Below, piece after piece: positions 54,765 through 64,000 of a DNA stretch of 64,000 nucleotides. The notes under the pieces were generated by a model. That model worked only from the letters and a program-made list of their open reading frames with translations, was not told the DNA's origin and did no database searches. Position numbers and translations under genes: made by a program. Source of the stretch: an uncultured bacterium (GTDB lineage Bacteria > Krumholzibacteriota > Krumholzibacteriia > Krumholzibacteriales > Krumholzibacteriaceae); the NCBI GenBank assembly GCA_963813815.1, contig CAWFAD010000011.1, forward strand, positions 1,180 to 65,179, read 5' to 3'. Numbering within the stretch: position 1 is the first letter of the stretch; every line of letters begins with the position of its first letter.

Positions 54765-57188
54765 CTACCTCGCGAGCACCATCTTCTTCGTTTCCGAGTA
54801 GGCGCCCGTCTCGAGCCGGTAGAAATACACTCCGCTCGCGACGGCCCGCCCCGATGCGTCGCACCCGTCCCAGATCTCGGTATACCGCCCCGCCGTGCGA
54901 TGCTCCTCAACGAGCGCGCGAACGAGCCGCCCCGCGGGGTCGTAGATGCGGAGCGATACGCGCGCCGGCGTCCCGAGGCCGAACTCGACCCGCGTCATCG
55001 GATTGAAAGGATTCGGATAGTTCTGCGCGAGGTAGCTCGCCTCGGGCGGCGGAGGCGTCTCTCCGCCCGTGATCTGCTCGGGCGCGAGAATCGCGAAGCC
55101 GCTCTCGTTTCCATGGATATCGACCGCCGAGACCTTGTAGTAGTAGCCCACACTCCAGCTCCAGCCCGCGTCGAAGCAGATCGTGTCCTCGGGAGAGGCG
55201 ATGAGGTTCCCCTCATCGGGAATGAAATCCTCCGCGATCCCGCGGTACACGCGATAGCCCGCGAGGTCGGCCTCGGTATTGCCGTCCCACGAGAGCTCGA
55301 GGCCGTCGGGCACGTAGCTCTGCTCGGCCGCGAGGCCGAGAGGCAGGGTAGGGGCGAGGTTGTCGACCGAGTAGCCGCTGTCCGGCGCCGATTTCCAGAA
55401 CACGAAGGGGTCGGACGTGTGAGCCACCACCTGGAAGTAATGATACTCGCCGCAAGCGGCGGTCGAGTCGAAGAGAGTGGCCACGGGCTTCCCGTATGCC
55501 TCCATGTAGAGCGCGTCGACCGTCTCCACGAGCTCCCAGAAGTAGGTGAGCGCTCCGATCTGCTCGACCCGTACGACGGGCTTGTCGGCCGCGGTATCGA
55601 GCTCGGATAGAGACGCGAGGGGCGAAACGCCCGAGTCGAGGGCGAGCGCCGCCTGCGTCGGACTGATGGCGCGCCAGATCGAGTAGTACGACATATCGCC
55701 CGTCATGAAGAGGTCGGGGCGGGCCGCGTACCAGGAGAGGTACACCTTGCCTCCCTGATCGCCGGGGACGTCGCGGACGGTGTGGATCTCCGGCGACAGC
55801 ATGCCGGTGCGACCGAACGTGTCTATGAATTGAACGTAGATGTCGCCGTTCCCATCGCGGTAATCCGACCATGCGACGATCGCGCCGCCCCTGTTATCTG
55901 AGGCGATCACGGGATACTCCTGCGTCTGTGCCGCGGTGCAAAGAGCGACCCCATCCGCGGCCCATTGAACCGCTCCCGAAGGATTCACTCGCTGGGCGTA
56001 GATGTCATAGATCCCGCTGCGGGCGTCGAACCATGAGATGATGGCGCCGCCGTCGACGTCGGAAGCGATGACGGGATAATACTGAGTCCCGGTCGCCGTG
56101 CAGACGGCGATGCCGTTGGCGATCCACTGGACGACACCCGAGGCATCCAGCTTTTGAGCGTAGATGTCATAGTTGCTGCCGTTGCGATAGTCGTACCACG
56201 AGACGATGGCGCCGCCGGCATCGTCGGATACGATGACTGGATAATATTGAGCTCCCGTCGCAGTGCAGAGAGCGACGCCGGTCGTCGTCCATTGAACGAC
56301 TCCAGAGGCGTTCACGCGCTGGGCATAGATGTCGTAGTTCGCGCTGCGGTAGTCGTACCACGTGACGATCGCGCCGCCCGTCCCGTCGGAGGCAATGGTG
56401 GGATACTGCTGATTCCACGCGACGGTACAGAGGGCGACGCCGTCGACGGTCCATTGAGCGACTCCAGAGTTGCTCACTCGCTGAGCATAGATGTCATAGT
56501 TGCTGCCGTTGCGATAGTCCTGCCATGCGACGAGGGCTCCGCCGGCGCCGTCTGAGACGGTGGTGAGAGACAACTGGCCGTTCGCCGCCGCGCAGACGGC
56601 GACGCCATTGGCGGTCCACTGAACGACCCCCGAGGCATTCACCCTCTGAGCATAGACATCGTAGTTGGAGCCGCTCCGGTAGTCGTGCCACGTGATGATC
56701 GCGCCGCCGACACCGTCCGAGACTATCTTCGGGTTCAACTGATCGCCTGTCCCTGCGCACAGAACCACCCCGTTCGCCGCCCACTGAACGGCTCCCGAGG
56801 CATCGACCCTCTGCGCGTAGATGTCCCAGCTGGTGCTCGTGCGGTAATCGTGCCATGCGACGATCGCGCCGCCCGCGCCGTCGGAGACGATCGCCGGTAC
56901 CTGCTGGTCAAACGCCATCGTGCAAAGAGCGACTCCGTTGGCCGTCCACAAGACTTCTCCAGAGGCGCTCACGCGTTGCGCGTAGATGTCCGTGTTCGAG
57001 TTGCGGTAGTCGTTCCACGCGATGATCGCGCCGCCCGCGCCGTCGGAGCCGATTGCAGGGCGCAATTGATCTCCCGTGGCCGTACAGAGAGCGACGCCGT
57101 TTCCTACCCAATAAGCCCAGATCGAAGGCACGGCGATTACGAGCGAACCGAGCGCCAGCGCAAACGCAACCTTCATAGCCTTGCTCAT
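54765..57188 (-). CDS. secreted repeat protein with T9SS (Por) C-terminal sorting domain
   Basis: RBS GGGAG before MSKAMKVAFALALGSLVIA (signal peptide). Eight tandem repeats of about 54 aa (consensus G-V-A-L-C-T-A-x-x-Q-x-x-P-x-I-V-S-D-G-A-G-G-A-I-V-A-W-x-D-Y-R-x-G-S-N-Y-D-I-Y-A-Q-R-V-N-A-S-G-V-V-Q-W). C-terminus ...GVYFYRLETGAYSETKKMVLAR matches the T9SS type-A CTD pattern. Confidence 0.6.
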   Translation of the reverse strand: MSKAMKVAFALALGSLVIAVPSIWAYWVGNGVALCTATGDQLRPAIGSDGAGGAIIAWNDYRNSNTDIYAQRVSASGEVLWTANGVALCTMAFDQQVPAIVSDGAGGAIVAWHDYRTSTSWDIYAQRVDASGAVQWAANGVVLCAGTGDQLNPKIVSDGVGGAIITWHDYRSGSNYDVYAQRVNASGVVQWTANGVAVCAAANGQLSLTTVSDGAGGALVAWQDYRNGSNYDIYAQRVSNSGVAQWTVDGVALCTVAWNQQYPTIASDGTGGAIVTWYDYRSANYDIYAQRVNASGVVQWTTTGVALCTATGAQYYPVIVSDDAGGAIVSWYDYRNGSNYDIYAQKLDASGVVQWIANGIAVCTATGTQYYPVIASDVDGGAIISWFDARSGIYDIYAQRVNPSGAVQWAADGVALCTAAQTQEYPVIASDNRGGAIVAWSDYRDGNGDIYVQFIDTFGRTGMLSPEIHTVRDVPGDQGGKVYLSWYAARPDLFMTGDMSYYSIWRAISPTQAALALDSGVSPLASLSELDTAADKPVVRVEQIGALTYFWELVETVDALYMEAYGKPVATLFDSTAACGEYHYFQVVAHTSDPFVFWKSAPDSGYSVDNLAPTLPLGLAAEQSYVPDGLELSWDGNTEADLAGYRVYRGIAEDFIPDEGNLIASPEDTICFDAGWSWSVGYYYKVSAVDIHGNESGFAILAPEQITGGETPPPPEASYLAQNYPNPFNPMTRVEFGLGTPARVSLRIYDPAGRLVRALVEEHRTAGRYTEIWDGCDASGRAVASGVYFYRLETGAYSETKKMVLAR
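55814..57113. repeat. eight about 162-bp tandem DNA repeats encoding the propeller-like repeats of the T9SS protein
   Basis: Near-identical peptide repeats and a cluster of spurious same-length ORFs in the six-frame track across this interval. Confidence 0.6.
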
Positions 57189-57396
57189 GGTCGTTTCTCC
57201 CTTCAAGGATGAATTTCGAAGCTATTTATTTATAGTAGCATACAGCGACAGCCTCATAAAGCAGAATATATGGCTTCGAAGAGCTTGCTGCCCGCCTTTT
57301 GGCTTTGACTCGGCGCGCCATGCGCAATACACTGGTCTCGGTGGCGCAATGCTCATTCACCTATGAGACGCGTCTCCGTAAGATGAACCGGGAGCC

Positions 57397-58619: not shown

Positions 58620-60374
58620 TTACTGAATCTCCCTCGACTGCTCGTCGAAAAGGACGCGGTAGAGGCCGCCCGCCTGATAGAGCGTGTTGTGCGTGCCCGA
58701 CTCGACCAGCCTGCCTTCGCTCAGCACGAAGATACGGTCCGCGTTCGTCACGCTCGTGAGGCGGTGGGCGATGATGATGACGGTTTGGCCTCTCACCTTC
58801 TCGAAGTAGCTCCCGAGCACCTGCCGCTCCGTGCGCGGATCGAGGGCGGAGGTGGCCTCGTCGAGGACGTGGATGCGGGGCGCCTTGAGGAGCGACCGCG
58901 CGAGCGCGAGCCGCTGGCGCTCTCCGCCCGAGAGGCGGAGCCCCTGCTGGCCGACGATCGTCTCGAGCCCCTCCGGCAGATTCGCGAGAAACTCCCCGAG
59001 AGAGGCCGTCTCCATGGCCGCGACGAGCTCCGCCTCCGTGGCCCGCGGCCGGGCCATCCGCAGGTTCCCCGCGATCGTGTCGTGAAACAGCTGCGTCTCC
59101 TGCGGAACGACGCCGATCGCGCGGCGGAGGCTCTTGAGCTTCCAGCGCCTGAGGTCGAGATCGTCGATGTAGACCGCGCCTTGCTGCGGATCGAGGTAAC
59201 GGGCGATGATCGCGGCGAGCGTGGATTTGCCGCTTCCCGAGGGACCGACGAGCGCGATCACCTGCCCCGGCTCCACCGAGAGACTGATATTCTCTATCGC
59301 CCTCGCGCCGTTGGGCCACGTGAGGCCGACCTGCTCGAGGCGGATCGCGCCCGTGACGCGGGGCGGCGCCGTCGCCTCCGCGTGCTCCTGAATCTGCGGT
59401 TCCGTGTCGATGAGGTCGTACACTCGGGCGAGCGACGCCCTCGCCATCTGGAGCTCGATGTTGATGTCGATGAGCTGCGAGATCGGCCGGTAGAGACGGC
59501 TCGCGAGCGTGTAGAACGCCACGAGACTGCCGAGGCTGAGCGTTCCGCCGAGCACCCGTCTGCCTCCCATGAGAAATACGAGGATAAAGGCGCCGGTCGA
59601 CATGACGTCCGCGAGCGAGACTTGTCCCGCGCCGATCACGGAGAGGGCGAGGTTGCTGCGGATCCACGGCCGCGACACGCGGACGAGGCGGCGGGTCTCG
59701 GCCTTCTCCCGGATAAGTTCCTGAACGAGGCGGATGCTCGAAATCCGCTCCTCGAGAAACGAGAAGAGGTCGGAGATCGCGTCCCTCGCCTTGATTCCCT
59801 CTTCCTGAATGCGGTGGTTGATTTTCGCGAGGATGGCGACGAGGAACGGATAGACGAGGAGGAGCAGGAGCGTGAGGCTCGGATCGATCCAGAAGAGGAT
59901 CGTCAATATCCCGACGATCGTCAAAACGTCCTGAATCGCGTTGACGATCGTGTGGGCGGCCGCGTGCTGGAGCACGTCGATGTCGGAGCTGATTCTCGCG
60001 AGTATGTCGCCCGTCTGCTCTCCGCGGAAGAAGAAGGGGGAGAGGCGTTCGACGTGCTCGAAGGCCTGCCGGCGGTAGTCGAAGAGGATCCGAAGCCCCG
60101 AGTAGCTGTAGAGCCAGACCGAGATGAGACGGAATCCCGTGCGAAAGACGAGCACGCCGAGAAGTATGGACACGAGCATGAGAAGAAGCGAGTAGTTGCC
60201 GTCGCCGATCGCGCGGTCGATGATGGTTCGCAGGATCAGCGGATCGATCAGGTTGAGAAAGACGTTGATGATGAGGCAGACCGCGATTTCGGCCTGAAGG
60301 CCGTAGTAGGGGCTCACGCGCTCGCGGAGGAAGCGCCGCAAGAGCCCGCGTCGGCTGGGATTCGCCTGTTTCAT
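58620..60374 (-). CDS. ABC exporter (fused 6-TM permease + ATPase), bacteriocin/type I secretion-like but without an N-terminal C39 peptidase domain
   Basis: 584 aa. TM domain from residue about 20. Walker A GPSGSGKST, signature LSGGERQRLALAR, Walker B IHVLDEATSALD. Confidence 0.8.
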   Translation of the reverse strand: MKQANPSRRGLLRRFLRERVSPYYGLQAEIAVCLIINVFLNLIDPLILRTIIDRAIGDGNYSLLLMLVSILLGVLVFRTGFRLISVWLYSYSGLRILFDYRRQAFEHVERLSPFFFRGEQTGDILARISSDIDVLQHAAAHTIVNAIQDVLTIVGILTILFWIDPSLTLLLLLVYPFLVAILAKINHRIQEEGIKARDAISDLFSFLEERISSIRLVQELIREKAETRRLVRVSRPWIRSNLALSVIGAGQVSLADVMSTGAFILVFLMGGRRVLGGTLSLGSLVAFYTLASRLYRPISQLIDINIELQMARASLARVYDLIDTEPQIQEHAEATAPPRVTGAIRLEQVGLTWPNGARAIENISLSVEPGQVIALVGPSGSGKSTLAAIIARYLDPQQGAVYIDDLDLRRWKLKSLRRAIGVVPQETQLFHDTIAGNLRMARPRATEAELVAAMETASLGEFLANLPEGLETIVGQQGLRLSGGERQRLALARSLLKAPRIHVLDEATSALDPRTERQVLGSYFEKVRGQTVIIIAHRLTSVTNADRIFVLSEGRLVESGTHNTLYQAGGLYRVLFDEQSREIQ

Positions 60375-61441
60375 CGCTTCTTCGTCCCGGCGAGCCTTTC
60401 GATGAGGAGGTGGCCGAGAGAGACCTTCTCATCGACGATGATCCGCGCCTGCCCTTTCATTCCGTCATAGAGCGGGCCCGGCGCGGTCGAGGGGTCGAAG
60501 GACACCTTTACGGGAAAGCCGCCGCCGCTCCGGCAGTCGTCCACGAAATCGAGCCGCCCGGCGAGGGTGCCGTGGAGAAGCCAAGGGTATCCCTCGAGCC
60601 GGATTTTGACCCTGTGTCCGGGACGCGCGGAGGCGCGGCCGGCGTCGAAGACGGCGCCCTCGAAGCGGTCGGCCGGGCCGGTCGAGAGGCGCAGTATCTC
60701 CTCGCCGCGCGTTACGGTTCGTCCCATGAGCTCGAAGAGGTTCGCGCCGAGCACGATCCCCCGGGTATCCGCCGCGAGCGTGTCGAGGGCGAGCATGCGG
60801 TCCGTTTCACCCACAGCCGCGCGCTCCTCGGCGATTTGCCCGGCGAGATTCCGAATTTCCCCGTCGAGCTTCTCGATTTGGTCCCGATGCCGCGCTTCGA
60901 GCACGGGGCCCGCGGCCTCGGCTTCCTTGAGCGCCACCCGGGCGAGATCGAGGGCGAGCTCGGAATCCTGAAGCTCCAGCTTCGTCGTGAGCCCCATGTC
61001 CCAGAGCTGCTTCTTGAGATCGAACTGTATCTCGGCGCTCGAAAGCTCGAGCCGGCTCCGCTCGAGATCCCGCGAGGCTTGGAGAACCTCGGCGGGGTGG
61101 ATCTGCGAGGCGAGTCGCCCGCGCTCGGCTCGGAGCACGACGATGCGGTCCGACAGGTTCGCGATCCGCGCCCTGATCTGCTCGTCCTGCGCGCGGAGCG
61201 GGGAGGACTCGAATGCGACGAGCGGCGCGCCGGCCCTAACGCTGTCCCCCGGCGCCACGAAAATCCCTTCGACGCGGCCTTCCCACGGCGCATACACAGC
61301 GACGGTGCCGCCGGCGAGACGGCCCTCGGCGATGACGACCCGGTCGATTCGCACAAAGAGGAGGAGACAGACCACGGCGACGAAAAGGCAGGAGCCGAGC
61401 GTCAAAAGGGGACGCAAAAGAGGCAGTGGGCGACGATGCAT
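60371..61441 (-). CDS. HlyD-family membrane fusion / secretion adaptor protein
   Basis: N-terminal TM anchor, biotinyl/lipoyl-like hairpin, long coiled coil and a C-terminal beta domain. The stop overlaps the ABC gene start (ATGA). Confidence 0.8.
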   Translation of the reverse strand: MHRRPLPLLRPLLTLGSCLFVAVVCLLLFVRIDRVVIAEGRLAGGTVAVYAPWEGRVEGIFVAPGDSVRAGAPLVAFESSPLRAQDEQIRARIANLSDRIVVLRAERGRLASQIHPAEVLQASRDLERSRLELSSAEIQFDLKKQLWDMGLTTKLELQDSELALDLARVALKEAEAAGPVLEARHRDQIEKLDGEIRNLAGQIAEERAAVGETDRMLALDTLAADTRGIVLGANLFELMGRTVTRGEEILRLSTGPADRFEGAVFDAGRASARPGHRVKIRLEGYPWLLHGTLAGRLDFVDDCRSGGGFPVKVSFDPSTAPGPLYDGMKGQARIIVDEKVSLGHLLIERLAGTKKR

Positions 61442-61499
61442 AAACCTCGCCGTGGGGTTAGAAGACTATTAACTGCGGTCGCGGCCTCGGAGCTTCGAC

Positions 61500-61610
61500 T
61501 CAGAGAGGGCCGATTTCGCACGCGGGCGGATACTCGGCGCACTGCATGCAGTGCGTGAGCGGCGGTTTCACGTGCGCGATGTTCGTGGAATGCTTGACGA
61601 CGAACTTCAT
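61500..61610 (-). CDS. candidate RiPP precursor peptide 1 (36 aa): MKFVVKHSTNIAHVKPPLTHCMQCAEYPPACEIGPL
   Basis: RBS GAGGTG 7 nt upstream. One of six paralogous small ORFs sharing the MKFVVK N-terminus and the T-x-C-x-x-C-x-E-x-P-x-x-C C-terminal motif. Below the ORF-track size cutoff. Confidence 0.6.
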   Translation of the reverse strand: MKFVVKHSTNIAHVKPPLTHCMQCAEYPPACEIGPL

Positions 61611-61705
61611 TTATTTTCACCTCTTCGATGGGACGAAGTGGCGCGGTCGCAGGGACCGCGCCACTCGCCGAGCCATATCGATCGACGATTATCGAGAAAT
61701 CGCGA

Positions 61706-61813
61706 TCAAATGGGGTCGATGACGCAGGCTGCCGGATTCTCCTTGCAGAGCCAGCACAGCGTATAGTTGACCCTCTTCGCCACCTCGGCGTTACGCTTTA
61801 CGACGAACTTCAT
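61706..61813 (-). CDS. candidate RiPP precursor peptide 2 (35 aa): MKFVVKRNAEVAKRVNYTLCWLCKENPAACVIDPI
   Basis: RBS GGGAGGG upstream. Same family motif. Confidence 0.6.
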   Translation of the reverse strand: MKFVVKRNAEVAKRVNYTLCWLCKENPAACVIDPI

Positions 61814-61859
61814 TGTTTCCCTCCCTTCCCTTTCCTTGCCCGTACGGGCTCACCTGGCG

Positions 61860-61958
61860 CTAGAAGCAGAATATGGGGTTTTCCGAGCACTGGGCGCAGC
61901 GGGTCGTGGGACCATTATGCGGTCCGACGCCGTTACGGCCGAGAACGATGAACTTCAT
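61860..61958 (-). CDS. candidate RiPP precursor peptide 3 (32 aa): MKFIVLGRNGVGPHNGPTTRCAQCSENPIFCF
   Basis: RBS GAGGAG upstream. Same family motif. First gene after the putative internal operator/promoter. Confidence 0.6.
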   Translation of the reverse strand: MKFIVLGRNGVGPHNGPTTRCAQCSENPIFCF

Positions 61959-62016
61959 GAGGATCGCTCCTCTCGCAACGATTGGAGATACGGCAGCCGA
62001 AATTTAGAGAGTCCCT

Positions 62017-62033
62017 TGAACAATCAGTTCAAA
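62017..62033. promoter_or_regulatory. perfect palindrome TTGAAC-aatca-GTTCAA in the gap between precursor genes 4 and 3 (candidate operator or internal promoter element)
   Basis: Read directly from the sequence. Lies in the only long (about 250 bp) spacer inside the peptide array, about 75 bp upstream of the peptide 3 start codon. Confidence 0.3.
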
Positions 62034-62106
62034 AATAACCCTTTAATTTTGTCATAGAGCGCGGCGGGAGTCAAGGTATTTGGGAGTGGCCCGCGGAAAG
62101 GGAAAT

Positions 62107-62130
62107 GGCGCGCTCCCGGAGGAGCGCGCC
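62107..62130 (-). terminator. GC-rich hairpin GGCGCGCTCC-cgga-GGAGCGCGCC downstream of precursor gene 4 (possible attenuator or partial terminator)
   Basis: 10-bp perfect stem with a 4-nt loop. On the minus strand it is followed by a pyrimidine-rich ATTTCCCTTTCC stretch. A second, weaker hairpin (AGCACTT...AAGTGCT) lies at 62149-62174. Confidence 0.35.
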
Positions 62131-62209
62131 ATTCCATGGCGCATTCTCAGCACTTCGGAAATCCGCAAAGTGCTTGCGGGCACCGATGCTCATCGCGCGC
62201 CGGCTCCGA

Positions 62210-62308
62210 TCAGTAGCAGGCGAGTGGATTCTCCTTGCAGAGAAAGCACATTGTGATCCTCGGCATGGCCGATTTGCGCGTCTCGGCGGGCTTTACGACG
62301 AACTTCAT
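62210..62308 (-). CDS. candidate RiPP precursor peptide 4 (32 aa): MKFVVKPAETRKSAMPRITMCFLCKENPLACY
   Basis: RBS AAGGAGGTG upstream. Same family motif. Followed by two hairpins. Confidence 0.6.
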   Translation of the reverse strand: MKFVVKPAETRKSAMPRITMCFLCKENPLACY

Positions 62309-62349
62309 ACTTCACCTCCTTACGATGAACTTGATGTGTTCCCCCTCGC

Positions 62350-62466
62350 TCACTCGCACCAGTGCGGGTCTTCCGAGCAGAGGGCGCAGAGCGTATGTCT
62401 CGGAATAACGCCATCCGAAGGCTTCGCATGGCGCGTTTCGGGGTTTGATGTCACGATGAACTTCAT
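62350..62466 (-). CDS. candidate RiPP precursor peptide 5 (38 aa): MKFIVTSNPETRHAKPSDGVIPRHTLCALCSEDPHWCE
   Basis: RBS GGAGGAG upstream. Same family motif. Confidence 0.6.
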   Translation of the reverse strand: MKFIVTSNPETRHAKPSDGVIPRHTLCALCSEDPHWCE

Positions 62467-62486
62467 AGCGCCTCTCCTCCCTATTA

Positions 62487-62591
62487 TCACTCTTCGCAGG
62501 CGCGGGGCTCCTCATGGCAAAGCCAGCAGCGCGTCAAATGAGTGGAATTCGATCCGCGCGTCCCGAGCAACGGCTTCACGACGAATCTCAT
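62487..62591 (-). CDS. candidate RiPP precursor peptide 6 (34 aa): MRFVVKPLLGTRGSNSTHLTRCWLCHEEPRACEE
   Basis: RBS AGGAGGG upstream. Same family motif. First gene of the array, next to the divergent promoter region. Confidence 0.6.
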   Translation of the reverse strand: MRFVVKPLLGTRGSNSTHLTRCWLCHEEPRACEE

Positions 62592-62687
62592 GAGTACCCT
62601 CCTTTCCCCTAGGCTGAATTGGATGCTGAATTCGTTAAGCTTGACATATATGAAATAAGCTGTCAACATATTTAACGTGAGACTGTT
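62592..62687. promoter_or_regulatory. AT-rich divergent intergenic region between precursor gene 6 and the ATP-grasp gene, with TTGACA and repeated TGACATAT / CAACATAT half-sites flanked by GTTAA...TTAAC
   Basis: TTGACATATATGAAATAAGCTGTCAACATATTTAAC is read directly. It is the only strongly AT-rich spacer in the cluster and sits between divergent transcription units. Confidence 0.3.
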
Positions 62688-63599
62688 ATGGAAAAAGAGA
62701 TAATCCTCGTCGGAATTCCCGGATCGGGTCTCGCGAGGGAGATTGCCGCGCATCTCAGCGGCACTCTTTTTACTCCGAGGATCCTGTCCGTCGACGCGCC
62801 CTTCGAGGGGCGGGCGGTGACGTTTGCTCCCGGGACCATCGTGTGGGAAGGGGTCGAGCTGCTCGAGGCGAGCGCCATATTCGCGGAGTGTTCGGTATTC
62901 AACTGGCCGCAGGCGCTCCTTCCCTTCGAAAACGATTCCAGTGGGCTCGCGTATAAGGAATGGGCCATCTTCCAGCGGGAGGCGCGTTCGCTCGTCGTAT
63001 CCTCGCTCTGGGCGGCGGGGAGGGAGCGCCCGATGATAAACCCGCCGTCCGCGGCTCACCTCGCTCTCTCGCCCTCGATAGCGCTCGATTATCTGAAGCA
63101 AGCGGGGATCCAGGTCCATCCGTGGAGCGTCGAATCGGCTCCGCCGGATGAAGGGGCGGGAGCGGGGTTGGTTCTCGATGTCTGCGGGCGCGAGCGCTGG
63201 CATTCCCCGCGCCGGCCGCCGGCCGGCGACCCGGCTCTCGTGCTCGAGCCGCACGATAATGAGGTCGTGACCTTCATGGTCGCGGGCGGCTCGGTCCTCG
63301 GAGCGCTTCGCTACGCGCGAGGGGAATCGTGGGCGAAACGGCAGACGGGATCGATCGGGGCGGATGAGCCCGGGCTCACGATCGATCTCGCGCCTTTTTC
63401 CGAAGCGGCCGACCTCGCGAAACGCTCGACCGAAGCGCTCGGGCTCGTTTTCGCGGCGGTATCCGTTCGCGCGGGCGCTCATCCCCCCTCGGTCATGCTC
63501 GTCGAGGCGAGCCCCGATCTCGAATCATGGAACGCGAAACTCGCGGGGCGCGTCGCGCGCTCCCTCGCCGATTGTCTCGTCGCCGCGGCCAGCTCCTGA
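62688..63599 (+). CDS. ATP-grasp-like (RimK-type) protein, candidate peptide maturase
   Basis: 303 aa. An N-terminal pre-ATP-grasp-like region is followed by a C-terminal region resembling the RimK ATP-grasp core (...LGLVFAAVSVRAGAHPPSVMLVEASPDL...). The usual E-x-N metal motif appears as E-A-S, so catalytic competence is uncertain. Confidence 0.45.
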   Translation: MEKEIILVGIPGSGLAREIAAHLSGTLFTPRILSVDAPFEGRAVTFAPGTIVWEGVELLEASAIFAECSVFNWPQALLPFENDSSGLAYKEWAIFQREARSLVVSSLWAAGRERPMINPPSAAHLALSPSIALDYLKQAGIQVHPWSVESAPPDEGAGAGLVLDVCGRERWHSPRRPPAGDPALVLEPHDNEVVTFMVAGGSVLGALRYARGESWAKRQTGSIGADEPGLTIDLAPFSEAADLAKRSTEALGLVFAAVSVRAGAHPPSVMLVEASPDLESWNAKLAGRVARSLADCLVAAASS

Positions 63600-63631: not shown

Positions 63632-64000
63632 ATGAAAGCGTCGCGCTACAATAAGCTCTTCCAGGCTTCGAACGGCGCGTGGCTCGCCTTCAACGGGTGG
63701 ACCACCTCGCTCGCCGAGATCGAGCCGGAGCAGCTCGAGTTCTTCAGGGCCCTTCTCGCCGATCCCGACCATGTTCCGTGCGACACGGCCGAGAAACGCG
63801 ATATGCGCGAGGCGATGATCGAGGCTAATTTTCTCATCGAGGACGGCATGGACGAGCTCAGCGCGACCAAGGTCGACAGCATGCGCGACCGGTTCGGCGG
63901 AGATTACCTGTATCTCACGATAGCGCCGACCCTCAACTGCAACTTCCGGTGCGATTACTGCTACGAGGAGCACCTCAAGATCACGATGCCGAAGGCGATC
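63632..64000 (+). CDS. radical SAM / SPASM-domain peptide-modifying enzyme (5' part; runs off the window end)
   Basis: RBS AAGGAG. N-terminus MKASRYNKLFQASNGAWLAFNGWTTSLAEI... is typical of anSME-like peptide maturases. CNFRCDYCY CxxxCxxC motif at 63940-63966. Confidence 0.7.
   Translation, partial: MKASRYNKLFQASNGAWLAFNGWTTSLAEIEPEQLEFFRALLADPDHVPCDTAEKRDMREAMIEANFLIEDGMDELSATKVDSMRDRFGGDYLYLTIAPTLNCNFRCDYCYEEHLKITMPKAI

Follow-up and report, generated by a model that had tools for sequence, protein, structure and literature searches.

Six paralogous peptides of an uncultured bacterium as probable precursors of a hybrid graspetide/radical SAM RiPP

The 64,000-nucleotide stretch of uncultured bacterial DNA analyzed here (hereafter the window) carries at positions 61500–62591, all on the minus strand, six open reading frames (ORFs) of 32–38 aa, p1 to p6, which share the N-terminus M-[KR]-F-[VI]-V and a C-terminal part of the form T-x-C-x-x-C-x-E-x-P-x-x-C. 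We consider it probable that these are paralogous precursors from a RiPP cluster (RiPP, a peptide that is ribosomally synthesized and then post-translationally modified) in which graspetide chemistry is combined with that of a radical S-adenosylmethionine (rSAM) enzyme. The RiPP family defined in this way comprises the precursor motif, at least 135 natural variants, and a conserved cluster of precursors plus six protein-coding genes, its hosts being uncultured bacteria whose metagenome-assembled genomes (MAGs) are labelled Planctomycetes or Acidobacteriia. The motif strings occur in no paper covered by our full-text literature searches, which also returned no description of the system or of a graspetide/ranthipeptide hybrid like it, and the peptides with their cluster apparently form a distinct hybrid graspetide/rSAM family that is undescribed.

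The six precursor genes and their family

It is clear that p1 to p6 are real, translated-looking genes (Table 1). All six ORFs are present as described in the initial annotation, with C-termini that it had quoted correctly to the letter, and to this description we add the strand. The SD (Shine-Dalgarno) sequence that it placed before each small ORF is found as a purine-rich element 5–10 nt 5' of every ATG, the common start M-[KR]-F-[VI]-V is seen in all six, and alignment of the six agrees with the reported invariance of three Cys, Glu, Pro and Thr while adding M1, F3 and V5 to the invariant positions. In the six-frame translation of the window, the patterns T.C..C.E.P..C and M[KR]F[VI]V and the combination of the two gave 6 matches each, all at this locus, whereas 200 simulated windows (first-order Markov) gave on average 0, 0.03, and 0 matches to the core, N-terminal, and combined patterns, which excludes a chance origin. 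A profile hidden Markov model of the family matches the six precursor ORFs at 54–60 bits and nothing else in the window below E = 3, and public collections contain a copy identical to p1, a protein without a name (P0136). None of the six has a match at E ≤ 1 in Pfam or NCBIfam, to known graspetide precursor models or otherwise, and these libraries hold no model for the peptide family.

The start codons of p5 and p6 are both nested in longer frames. The p5 ATG at 62466 lies within a longer GTG ORF (46 aa when extended to the GTG) and was chosen because of its SD sequence and N-terminal homology, and the p6 ATG at 62591, which lies within a 331-aa antisense ORF, was likewise chosen because of its SD sequence and homology. 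This antisense ORF (62487–63482, minus strand), which is opposite the ATP-grasp gene grasp1 and conceals the true start of p6, and a second one of 382 aa opposite the HlyD gene (60410–61558, plus strand) both look like chance products of high-GC DNA and not genes. The homology matches fall on the opposite strand.

Purifying selection is strong on the N-terminal 7 residues and on the core of 13. In orthologue pairs (among the related loci L001, L004, and L005 and between L012 and L016, see below) the ratio of nonsynonymous to synonymous differences, pN/pS, is 0.08 over the first 7 and the core 13 codons. The middle segment drifts at about the neutral rate, with a pooled pN/pS of 0.95. Its closest pairs give values of approximately 1.4–1.8 (arithmetic on pair counts, with just 1–8 substitutions per pair), and diversifying selection on this segment is possible, the pooled value being compatible with neutrality. 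Two explanations of a conserved N-terminus with a variable middle had been offered earlier: an N-terminal recognition sequence, which agrees with the selection on the N-terminal heptad, and selection for diversity in the middle, which is not demonstrated. A constant leader motif ahead of a variable linker is also less unusual among RiPPs than was claimed. What we observe is a constraint in two parts, both under purifying selection, which we take to be a recognition (leader) element and a core.

Among the window paralogues themselves, the alignable conserved blocks give a pooled pS of 0.58, which is near saturation, and a pN of 0.25. The invariant residues are written with differing synonymous codons (Thr as ACG, ACC, or ACA; Glu as GAG or GAA; Pro as CCG, CCC, or CCA; Val as GTC, GTA, GTT, or GTG), which shows selection on the protein. 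A recent duplication of a DNA repeat is ruled out by these codons together with the near-saturated synonymous sites, and the scenario under which the initial annotation would have been abandoned, a recent non-coding repeat with no purifying selection on the conserved positions, is contradicted by the same codon usage.

To describe the family beyond the window, a profile of 12 peptides was searched against 5.8 billion proteins at E ≤ 10. It found 128 proteins, and the 120 listed (E-values of 9e-15 to 3e-6) are all unnamed and all without a Pfam domain; the precursor genes are mostly missed or unnamed in current annotation. Database and loci together yield at least 135 distinct peptides of 29–52 aa (median 35), and the full T.C..C.E.P..C is kept in 134 of 135. 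Their consensus reads M-[KR]-F-[IV]-V-[KER]-P, followed by 8–25 variable residues, then [IHT]-T-[ML]-C-A-[LQK]-C-S-E-[DN]-P-R-F-C and a tail of 1–10 residues, such that the last Cys of the core is never the C-terminal residue. The donor and acceptor of a graspetide core, Thr and Glu, are both invariant in 134 of the 135. An extra (fourth) Cys occurs in the middle segment of 40 of 134 peptides, Ser stands at +6 in 95%, position +8 is Asp or Asn (Asn in 25%), and no Lys is conserved. Within P-x-x-C, the window copies depart from the common form, as do the L012 and L016 copies, with AA, PA, LA, HW, RA, or IF where most have RF. A scan of 185,579 species representatives returned one locus only, from the same organism as L001.

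Related loci, 18 in number and designated here by L numbers, were collected through word-index and pattern searches and exact-protein lookups starting at grasp1, the peptides, and a PrdB-like protein. With the exception of the decayed L013, those with enough flank share the same six genes, encoding an ABC exporter, an HlyD-type adaptor, a degenerate ATP-grasp (grasp1), an rSAM/SPASM enzyme, a second ATP-grasp (grasp2), and the PrdB-like protein. The gene order of the window is repeated in L001, L004, L005, L007, L012, L014, L015, and L016 up to the end of each contig, and L008, L010, and L018 carry the same genes in other orders and orientations. This persistence through rearrangement is the strongest evidence that the genes of the cluster work together. 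The association of precursors and enzymes, which is what one would ask of any RiPP precursor, is seen in more than 10 independent loci, rearranged ones included, and the three loci picked from the PrdB-like side all carry the whole enzyme set (3/3). Precursor copies number 6 in the window, 5 in L008, 4 each in L010 and L012, 3 each in L014 and L016, 2 each in L001, L004, L005, and L018, and at least 1 in L015. The motif is kept at every homologous locus carrying precursors, as the initial annotation requires. Two smaller features of individual loci are an extra protein of 401–402 aa inside the cluster in L010 (10477–11685) and L018 (7088–8296), not present in loci of the window type and without a Pfam or NCBIfam match, and the spacing in the 18.8-kb locus L017, where HlyD and grasp1 are 85 bp apart.

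Enzymes and exporter encoded with the precursors

The invariant Cys residues had been proposed in the initial annotation as substrates of rSAM thioether chemistry, and a predicted rSAM/SPASM maturase, whose best solved relative is the thioether-forming CteB (5wgg, 1.6e-17), starts 1 kb away at 63632. The N-terminal fragment within the window matches TIGR04334 (8e-23, 80.8 bits) and TIGR04463 (2.3e-17, 62.9 bits), both far below cutoff. The full length in the same organism is 454 aa according to gene calls on Logan contigs that carry an identical grasp1, and these contigs continue from the rSAM gene into a RimK-like ATP-grasp (weak match, 313 aa) and an ORF of at least 244 aa. Six rSAM orthologues conserve CxxxCxxC and, in addition, C288, C331, C350, C391, C394, C400, C404, and C419, eight further Cys of the kind that a SPASM domain having two auxiliary clusters should show; with the SPASM domain model TIGR04085 the score is 58.7 bits, the cutoff being 27. 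The full-length enzyme of L001 reaches 291.3 bits with TIGR04334 (the Clo7bot maturase, cutoff 600) and 292.2 bits with TIGR04463 (cutoff 525), with CefB, FlmE/OhkG, the geopeptide maturase, and PapB as the next NCBIfam matches, and these best families are all maturases of Cys-rich peptides. Relative to characterized thioether families, it again scores below cutoff (PapB, NF047865, 113 bits vs. 340; SCIFF maturase, TIGR03974, 66.9 vs. 425), which raises the question of how a sub-cutoff SPASM enzyme acts on the T-x-C-x-x-C-x-E-x-P-x-x-C core.

Two ATP-grasp homologues flank the rSAM gene, and the intact one has its closest match in PsnB, which forms Thr-Glu esters (PsnB preprint); the earlier suggestion that the invariant Thr and Glu are the pair for an ATP-grasp ester crosslink thus gains a candidate enzyme. 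In the related loci, PsnB is the best solved relative of grasp2 over its full length at 7.8e-36, vs. approximately 1e-9 for RimK. The two Lys that bind ATP are kept, together with the Gly-rich loop, an equivalent of Arg213, the D-x-R loop, the Asp that binds Mg, and E-x-N, so that grasp2 of these loci has what is expected of a macrocyclase of the graspetide clade with intact catalytic residues. In NCBIfam, grasp2 of L001 matches rimK_fam at 1.2e-14, about level with GRASP_SAV_5884 at 1.3e-13.

The other homologue, grasp1, has no Pfam or NCBIfam match, and its assignment comes from its fold. The AlphaFold2 (AF2) model has a pLDDT of 94 with a 52-sequence alignment (47.6 with 4 sequences), and the best-matching folds are PsnB (E 4e-15, TM ~0.7), PruB, AMdnB, CdnC, and MdnB/C, with RimK ranking after these. 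An exhaustive search gives 97 clusters (50% identity) for the grasp1 family, whose profile aligns to the PsnB sequence at 4.7e-17, and hhalign pairs grasp1 with grasp2 at a probability of 97.7. The active site is degenerate throughout the family: in 49 members, the two ATP-binding Lys are replaced by Pro and by Leu/Ile, the Gly-rich loop is deleted, the Mg-binding Asp is Ser/Thr, and E-x-N has become Leu-x-Asp/Glu. Near-invariant columns include no Lys, Glu, or Asn, and the residues by which an active ATP-grasp is recognized (two Lys, Gly-rich loop, Asp, E-x-N) are accordingly missing. Equivalents of PsnB Arg213 and of its D(F/W)R loop are also absent, both of which PsnB requires for acid recognition, ATP binding, and activity (PsnB preprint).

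Retained in grasp1 are W53, W73-P74-Q75, W146, D164, W281, and R97, the last of which is invariant in 49 of 49 aligned members and aligns with PsnB Arg101, a residue that crosses the dimer and contacts the core peptide in the other subunit (PsnB preprint). We predict from these alignments that grasp1 is a non-catalytic partner subunit. Since PsnB works as an asymmetric dimer with one loaded subunit only (PsnB preprint), a heterodimer of a live and a dead subunit would be the natural reading, and the system raises the question of whether an ATP-grasp macrocyclase can act as a heterodimer with a pseudo-enzyme paralogue. It was also observed that grasp1 is the fastest-diverging protein of the cluster (52–69% identity between loci where the rSAM enzyme and the ABC exporter show 77–89%), and its GC content at third codon positions is 0.77 vs. 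0.82–0.89 in the neighbors.

The PrdB-like protein (248–272 aa) aligns nearly full length with TIGR04483 PrdB at 3.5e-28 and weakly with Pfam GRDB; its 98.6 bits against the TIGR04483 cutoff of 300 place it outside PrdB proper. It carries an invariant LLP[TS]C[SP]LCVQTV, in which the C-x-x-C has Cys in place of Sec and stands at about the position of the selenoprotein B Sec redox motif. No meaningful match was found among solved structures, and the gene lists of the loci contain no PrdA-sized ORF or Pfam-annotated PrdA/GrdE-like gene, though not all unannotated ORFs were examined. At least 209 close homologues exist, from MAGs with the NCBI labels Planctomycetes and Acidobacteriia, and JGI names the protein “D-proline reductase PrdB.” This label is probably a misannotation; given its place among RiPP genes, the protein is not likely to act as a proline reductase. 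Why a Cys version of the proline/glycine-reductase selenoprotein B should be strictly attached to a peptide cluster is a further question raised by the system.

The HlyD-type adaptor gene lies downstream of p1 on the same strand (66% identity to the L001 orthologue), and its stop is overlapped by 4 nt by the start of the ABC exporter (78% identity to the L001 orthologue). The exporter has no N-terminal C39 peptidase domain, and its L001 orthologue spans positions 148–693 only of the HlyB model. No dedicated leader protease is conserved among the loci, where the neighboring peptidase-like genes (M23, M16, PD40) vary from one to the next.

A mechanism consistent with these genes would begin with MKFIVKP and its invariant Phe serving as the recognition (leader) element. 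In known graspetide systems, Phe15 of the PsnA2 leader, with a similar hydrophobic contact in the MdnC-MdnA structure, binds the cognate ATP-grasp (PsnB preprint). Next, grasp2 would phosphorylate the invariant Glu and esterify it to the Thr seven residues upstream, giving a macrolactone that encloses CxxC, with grasp1 as the dead paralogue forming the second subunit of an asymmetric dimer and its R97 touching the core peptide in trans. Thioether crosslinks would be formed from the three invariant Cys by the rSAM/SPASM enzyme, a thiol-based redox step would fall to the PrdB-like CxxC protein, and the product would be exported via ABC/HlyD, with no dedicated leader protease encoded. The 2–6 divergent copies per locus would in this way supply a small product library from one enzyme set.

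A more far-reaching version of this proposal can be formulated, in which the obligately heterodimeric synthetase with its in-trans Arg, a new SPASM maturase acting on CxxC...C, and the Cys homologue of PrdB/GrdB as a reductive peptide tailor (whose target might be, for example, the invariant Pro, a C-S bond, or a C-N bond) together make up a distinct RiPP class. We hold this to be rather unlikely, and we know of no such thiol-dependent reductive peptide-tailoring reaction in RiPP biosynthesis.

Table 1. Coordinates of the precursor genes, cluster genes, and intergenic elements. Positions refer to the window unless a related locus is named.
Feature	Position	Strand	Size and description	Evidence
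p1	61500–61610	−	36 aa, MKFVVKHSTNIAHVKPPLTHCMQCAEYPPACEIGPL	ORF, SD GAGGTG, family profile 57 bits
p2	61706–61813	−	35 aa, MKFVVKRNAEVAKRVNYTLCWLCKENPAACVIDPI	ORF, SD GGGAGGG, family profile 58 bits
p3	61860–61958	−	32 aa, MKFIVLGRNGVGPHNGPTTRCAQCSENPIFCF	ORF, SD GAGAGGAG, family profile 59 bits
p4	62210–62308	−	32 aa, MKFVVKPAETRKSAMPRITMCFLCKENPLACY	ORF, SD AAGGAGGTG, family profile 60 bits
p5	62350–62466	−	38 aa, MKFIVTSNPETRHAKPSDGVIPRHTLCALCSEDPHWCE	ORF, SD GGGAGGAG, family profile 57 bits
p6	62487–62591	−	34 aa, MRFVVKPLLGTRGSNSTHLTRCWLCHEEPRACEE	ORF, SD AAGGAGGG, family profile 54 bits
grasp1	62688–63599	+	303 aa	graspetide-type ATP-grasp fold, degenerate active site
Radical SAM/SPASM peptide maturase (predicted)	63632–64000	+	N-terminal 123 aa, cut by window end	includes CNFRCDYC
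HlyD-type membrane-fusion (periplasmic adaptor) protein	60371–61441	−	356 aa	TIGR01843 2.2e-15, Pfam HlyD_D23
ABC exporter	58620–60374	−	584 aa, fused permease-ATPase	Pfam ABC_membrane and ABC_tran
PrdB-like gene, L001	7372–8118
PrdB-like gene, L005	12443–13168
PrdB-like gene, L008	7896–8672
PrdB-like gene, L010	8341–9117
PrdB-like gene, L012	4842–5633
PrdB-like gene, L014	5332–6108
PrdB-like gene, L015	5670–6488
PrdB-like gene, L016	9001–9816
Hairpin	62104–62133	−	perfect 13 bp, 3' of p4, then AUUUCCCUUUCC	inverted repeat I1; −34.6 kcal/mol, z −4.2
Hairpin	61637–61665	−	perfect 12 bp, between p2 and p1	I2, D8, D9; −33.9 kcal/mol, z −3.7
Vestigial precursor 5' end (putative)	62312–62335	−	ATC AAG TTC ATC GTA AGG AGG TGA = IKFIVRR*	7th member of direct-repeat family D4
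Divergent intergenic region	62592–62687		96 bp, 40% GC, AT-rich	between p6 and enzyme operon

Competing readings and related systems

Several points weigh against the hybrid graspetide/rSAM assignment. We infer every crosslink from homology and conservation, and the invariance of the motif among the 135 peptides is partly circular, the peptides having been retrieved with a profile of that motif. The maturase reaches about half the cutoff of every NCBIfam equivalog, so that thioether formation by it is likewise a prediction from sequence relatives, and the heterodimer is proposed from alignment. Both grasp2 and the PrdB-like gene fall beyond the end of the window, and for this organism they are represented by gene calls on short Logan contigs. 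The cluster contains neither a leader protease nor a peptidase-ABC transporter. At the level of loci, L017 (ENA ERZ27247996 k141_2248835) has the full enzyme and transporter set with no precursor within 9 kb by regular expression or profile, its precursors perhaps being encoded elsewhere, and L013 (7000–12200, ENA ERZ25039533 contig_49389) has three intact precursors beside a decayed enzyme set. There we find a grasp1 fragment, HlyD in two pieces followed by a precursor, and the ABC gene, with no rSAM or grasp2 gene within 10 kb, and L013 looks like a decayed version of the cluster.

The chemistry of the core leaves room for another assignment as well, because Thr (in CteB) and Glu or Asp (in QhpD and PapB) are known thioether acceptors of related rSAM enzymes, and the Thr/Glu pair, not being uniquely suited to an ester, could serve as two such acceptors. 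The alternative that follows is a thioether-only core in the ranthipeptide style, in which Thr, Glu, and Asp/Asn accept the three Cys and the ATP-grasp pair has a task other than forming a Thr-Glu lactone: it might, for instance, link a Lys of the variable region in a lactam, make a Ser-Glu ester, or add amino acids as RimK does. There are as many conserved potential acceptors as invariant Cys, namely three (T, E, and D/N at +8), and thioethers of the Cys-Thr (CteB) and Cys-Asp/Glu (PapB, QhpD) kinds are established. The rSAM enzyme is also nearest to CteB and to maturases of Cys-rich peptides including PapB, and the near-equal rimK_fam and GRASP_SAV_5884 scores of L001 grasp2 and the Ser at +6 (95% conserved) also count in favor of this alternative. 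Set against this, the grasp2 profile favors the Thr-Glu macrolactone synthetase PsnB over RimK by 26 orders of magnitude, and grasp2 keeps the graspetide-specific Arg213 and D-x-R loop. The substrate side speaks the same way: there is no conserved Lys for a lactam, the carboxylate that an ATP-grasp requires is invariant only at the Glu, and the supposed third acceptor at +8 is Asn in 25% of peptides. On balance, a thioether-only core seems unlikely to us, though of the alternatives considered it survives best.

A second alternative makes the peptides precursors not of secreted bioactive RiPPs but of a redox cofactor derived from peptide, or of a prosthetic peptide that binds metal, in the manner of PqqA/pyrroloquinoline quinone (PQQ), mycofactocin, or QhpC, with the PrdB-like protein as redox partner. 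SPASM enzymes do make PQQ, mycofactocin, and QhpC, and a redox-type selenoprotein B homologue is strictly associated with the peptides. The near-identity of the 13-residue core across MAGs labelled Planctomycetes or Acidobacteriia would be unusual for antimicrobial cores, and the CxxC...C arrangement, with a fourth Cys in 40 of 134 peptides, could serve such a function. Cofactor precursors are normally single and uniform, however, and here there are 2–6 divergent paralogues with a drifting middle; moreover, an ABC exporter and an HlyD adaptor occur in every complete locus, and no cognate dehydrogenase or oxidoreductase is conserved beside the cluster. We therefore regard a cofactor role as very improbable. 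It is scarcely credible that these are unmodified small Cys-rich peptides (disulfide- or metal-stabilized bacteriocins or small regulators) which merely happen to lie near the enzymes, or a non-coding tandem repeat, as their lack of database annotation might suggest, given that the association with the enzymes survives rearrangement in L008, L010, and L018, that the pN/pS of 0.08 and the synonymous codons at invariant residues indicate a protein, that every copy has an SD sequence, and that Rfam finds nothing in the window.

The hybrid graspetide/rSAM reading can be placed relative to known systems. With graspetides (group 2 plesiocin/PsnB; microviridin MdnB/MdnC) the cluster shares a PsnB-like ATP-grasp in which the catalytic and the graspetide-specific residues are all present, a short precursor whose N-terminal motif includes a key Phe and whose core has Thr and Glu as invariant residues, and several precursor copies per cluster, which is common in graspetide loci. 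It differs in having a single Thr/Glu pair alongside three invariant Cys and an invariant Pro, in matching no graspetide model, and in its obligatory rSAM/SPASM enzyme, degenerate second ATP-grasp, and PrdB-like protein. With ranthipeptides and sactipeptides (SCIFF/thermocellin CteB; freyrasin PapB) it has in common an rSAM/SPASM enzyme with auxiliary-cluster Cys and a short Cys-rich core in which Thr, Glu, and Asp/Asn lie near the Cys as possible acceptors, but the maturase is far below the PapB and SCIFF cutoffs, the precursor is unrelated, and those systems are without an ATP-grasp.

The best-scoring families over the full maturase, N-terminal domain included, are Clo7bot (TIGR04334) and the “very short C-rich” TIGR04463, in which there are likewise several short Cys-rich precursors per SPASM maturase. 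At approximately 291–292 bits vs. 600 and 525, the maturase stays below both cutoffs. No peptide matches an NCBIfam model at E ≤ 1, including any precursor models of these two families that the library may contain, and a literature search on the two names found nothing relevant. To our knowledge, these systems have no ATP-grasp and are uncharacterized.

Clusters predicted to combine an ATP-grasp with a SPASM enzyme in RiPP biosynthesis have been reported as the Bacteroidota “branch 5” (Makarova et al., 2022, TIGR04193; PMC8939145) and as “group 14” (Carter et al., 2026; PMC13097080). These resemble the present loci in the ATP-grasp ligase, SPASM rSAM enzyme, HlyD, and ABC transporter and in precursors with Cys, Thr, and Asp/Glu, and differ in their GG-type leader, MKKL N-terminus, LPL-family small proteins, and “cluster 23” lipoproteins, in place of which the present loci have the pseudo-ATP-grasp and the PrdB-like protein. 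TIGR04193 is not among the best 25 of the 64 NCBIfam matches of our maturase, and we found no report of chemical characterization for any predicted ATP-grasp/rSAM hybrid cluster.

The idea of an obligatory non-catalytic partner for a graspetide ATP-grasp has a parallel in rosaritide, where MirB needs the strictly co-occurring MirC, a protein of the peptidyl-prolyl isomerase PpiC type or with a chaperone domain (the first case of partner-dependent graspetide synthesis, reported in 2026; PMC13097080). The partner proposed here is instead a degenerate ATP-grasp paralogue, in a role that is predicted, and a pseudo-ATP-grasp partner is not described in that work. The resemblance of the PrdB-like protein to selenoprotein B (PrdB, GrdB) consists of the near full-length TIGR04483 alignment and the C-x-x-C, and the differences are Cys for Sec, the 98.6 vs. 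300 bits, the lack of an evident PrdA partner, and the RiPP cluster setting.

Layout of the precursor array and the rest of the window

The closest pair among the paralogues is p4/p2 (pS 0.28), followed by p5/p3 (DNA repeat D5). Two near-identical, GC-rich hairpins, themselves paralogous, follow p4 and p2, and this pairing of genes and stems points to growth of the array by duplication of a two-gene-plus-hairpin unit. A T-rich tract is present after the hairpin at 62104–62133 and absent after that at 61637–61665. The former is probably a terminator, attenuator, or mRNA-stabilizing stem, while the latter does not appear to be a canonical terminator since no U-run follows its stem; as a pair, they may determine how much precursor mRNA is present relative to transporter mRNA. 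The gap of 251 bp that follows p4 contains, besides the hairpin at 62104–62133, a sigma-70-like promoter match just 3' of it (62074–62046, minus strand). Between p5 and p4, the IKFIVRR remnant shares bases with the p4 ribosome-binding site and resembles a scar left by duplication or unequal crossing-over between copies.

The intergenic region that separates the precursors from the divergently transcribed enzyme operon presumably holds the promoters of both operons, and a single weak sigma-70-type match was found in it. At 62640–62675 there is a TTGACA together with an imperfect direct repeat, AAGCTTGACATAT / AAGCTGTCAACATAT, which might act as promoter or operator of the two operons. Scanning the window against Rfam and for tRNAs gave no matches and no tRNA genes.

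The other window genes examined look like ordinary housekeeping genes, encoding, for example, ClpB, FtsK, and ThiE-like proteins. Proteins with a C-terminal sorting domain of the type IX secretion system adjoin the transporter end of the cluster both in the window (54768–57206, minus strand) and in L001 (2–253), and such domains hint at an FCB-group-like host, the NCBI labels of related MAGs being Planctomycetes or Acidobacteriia.

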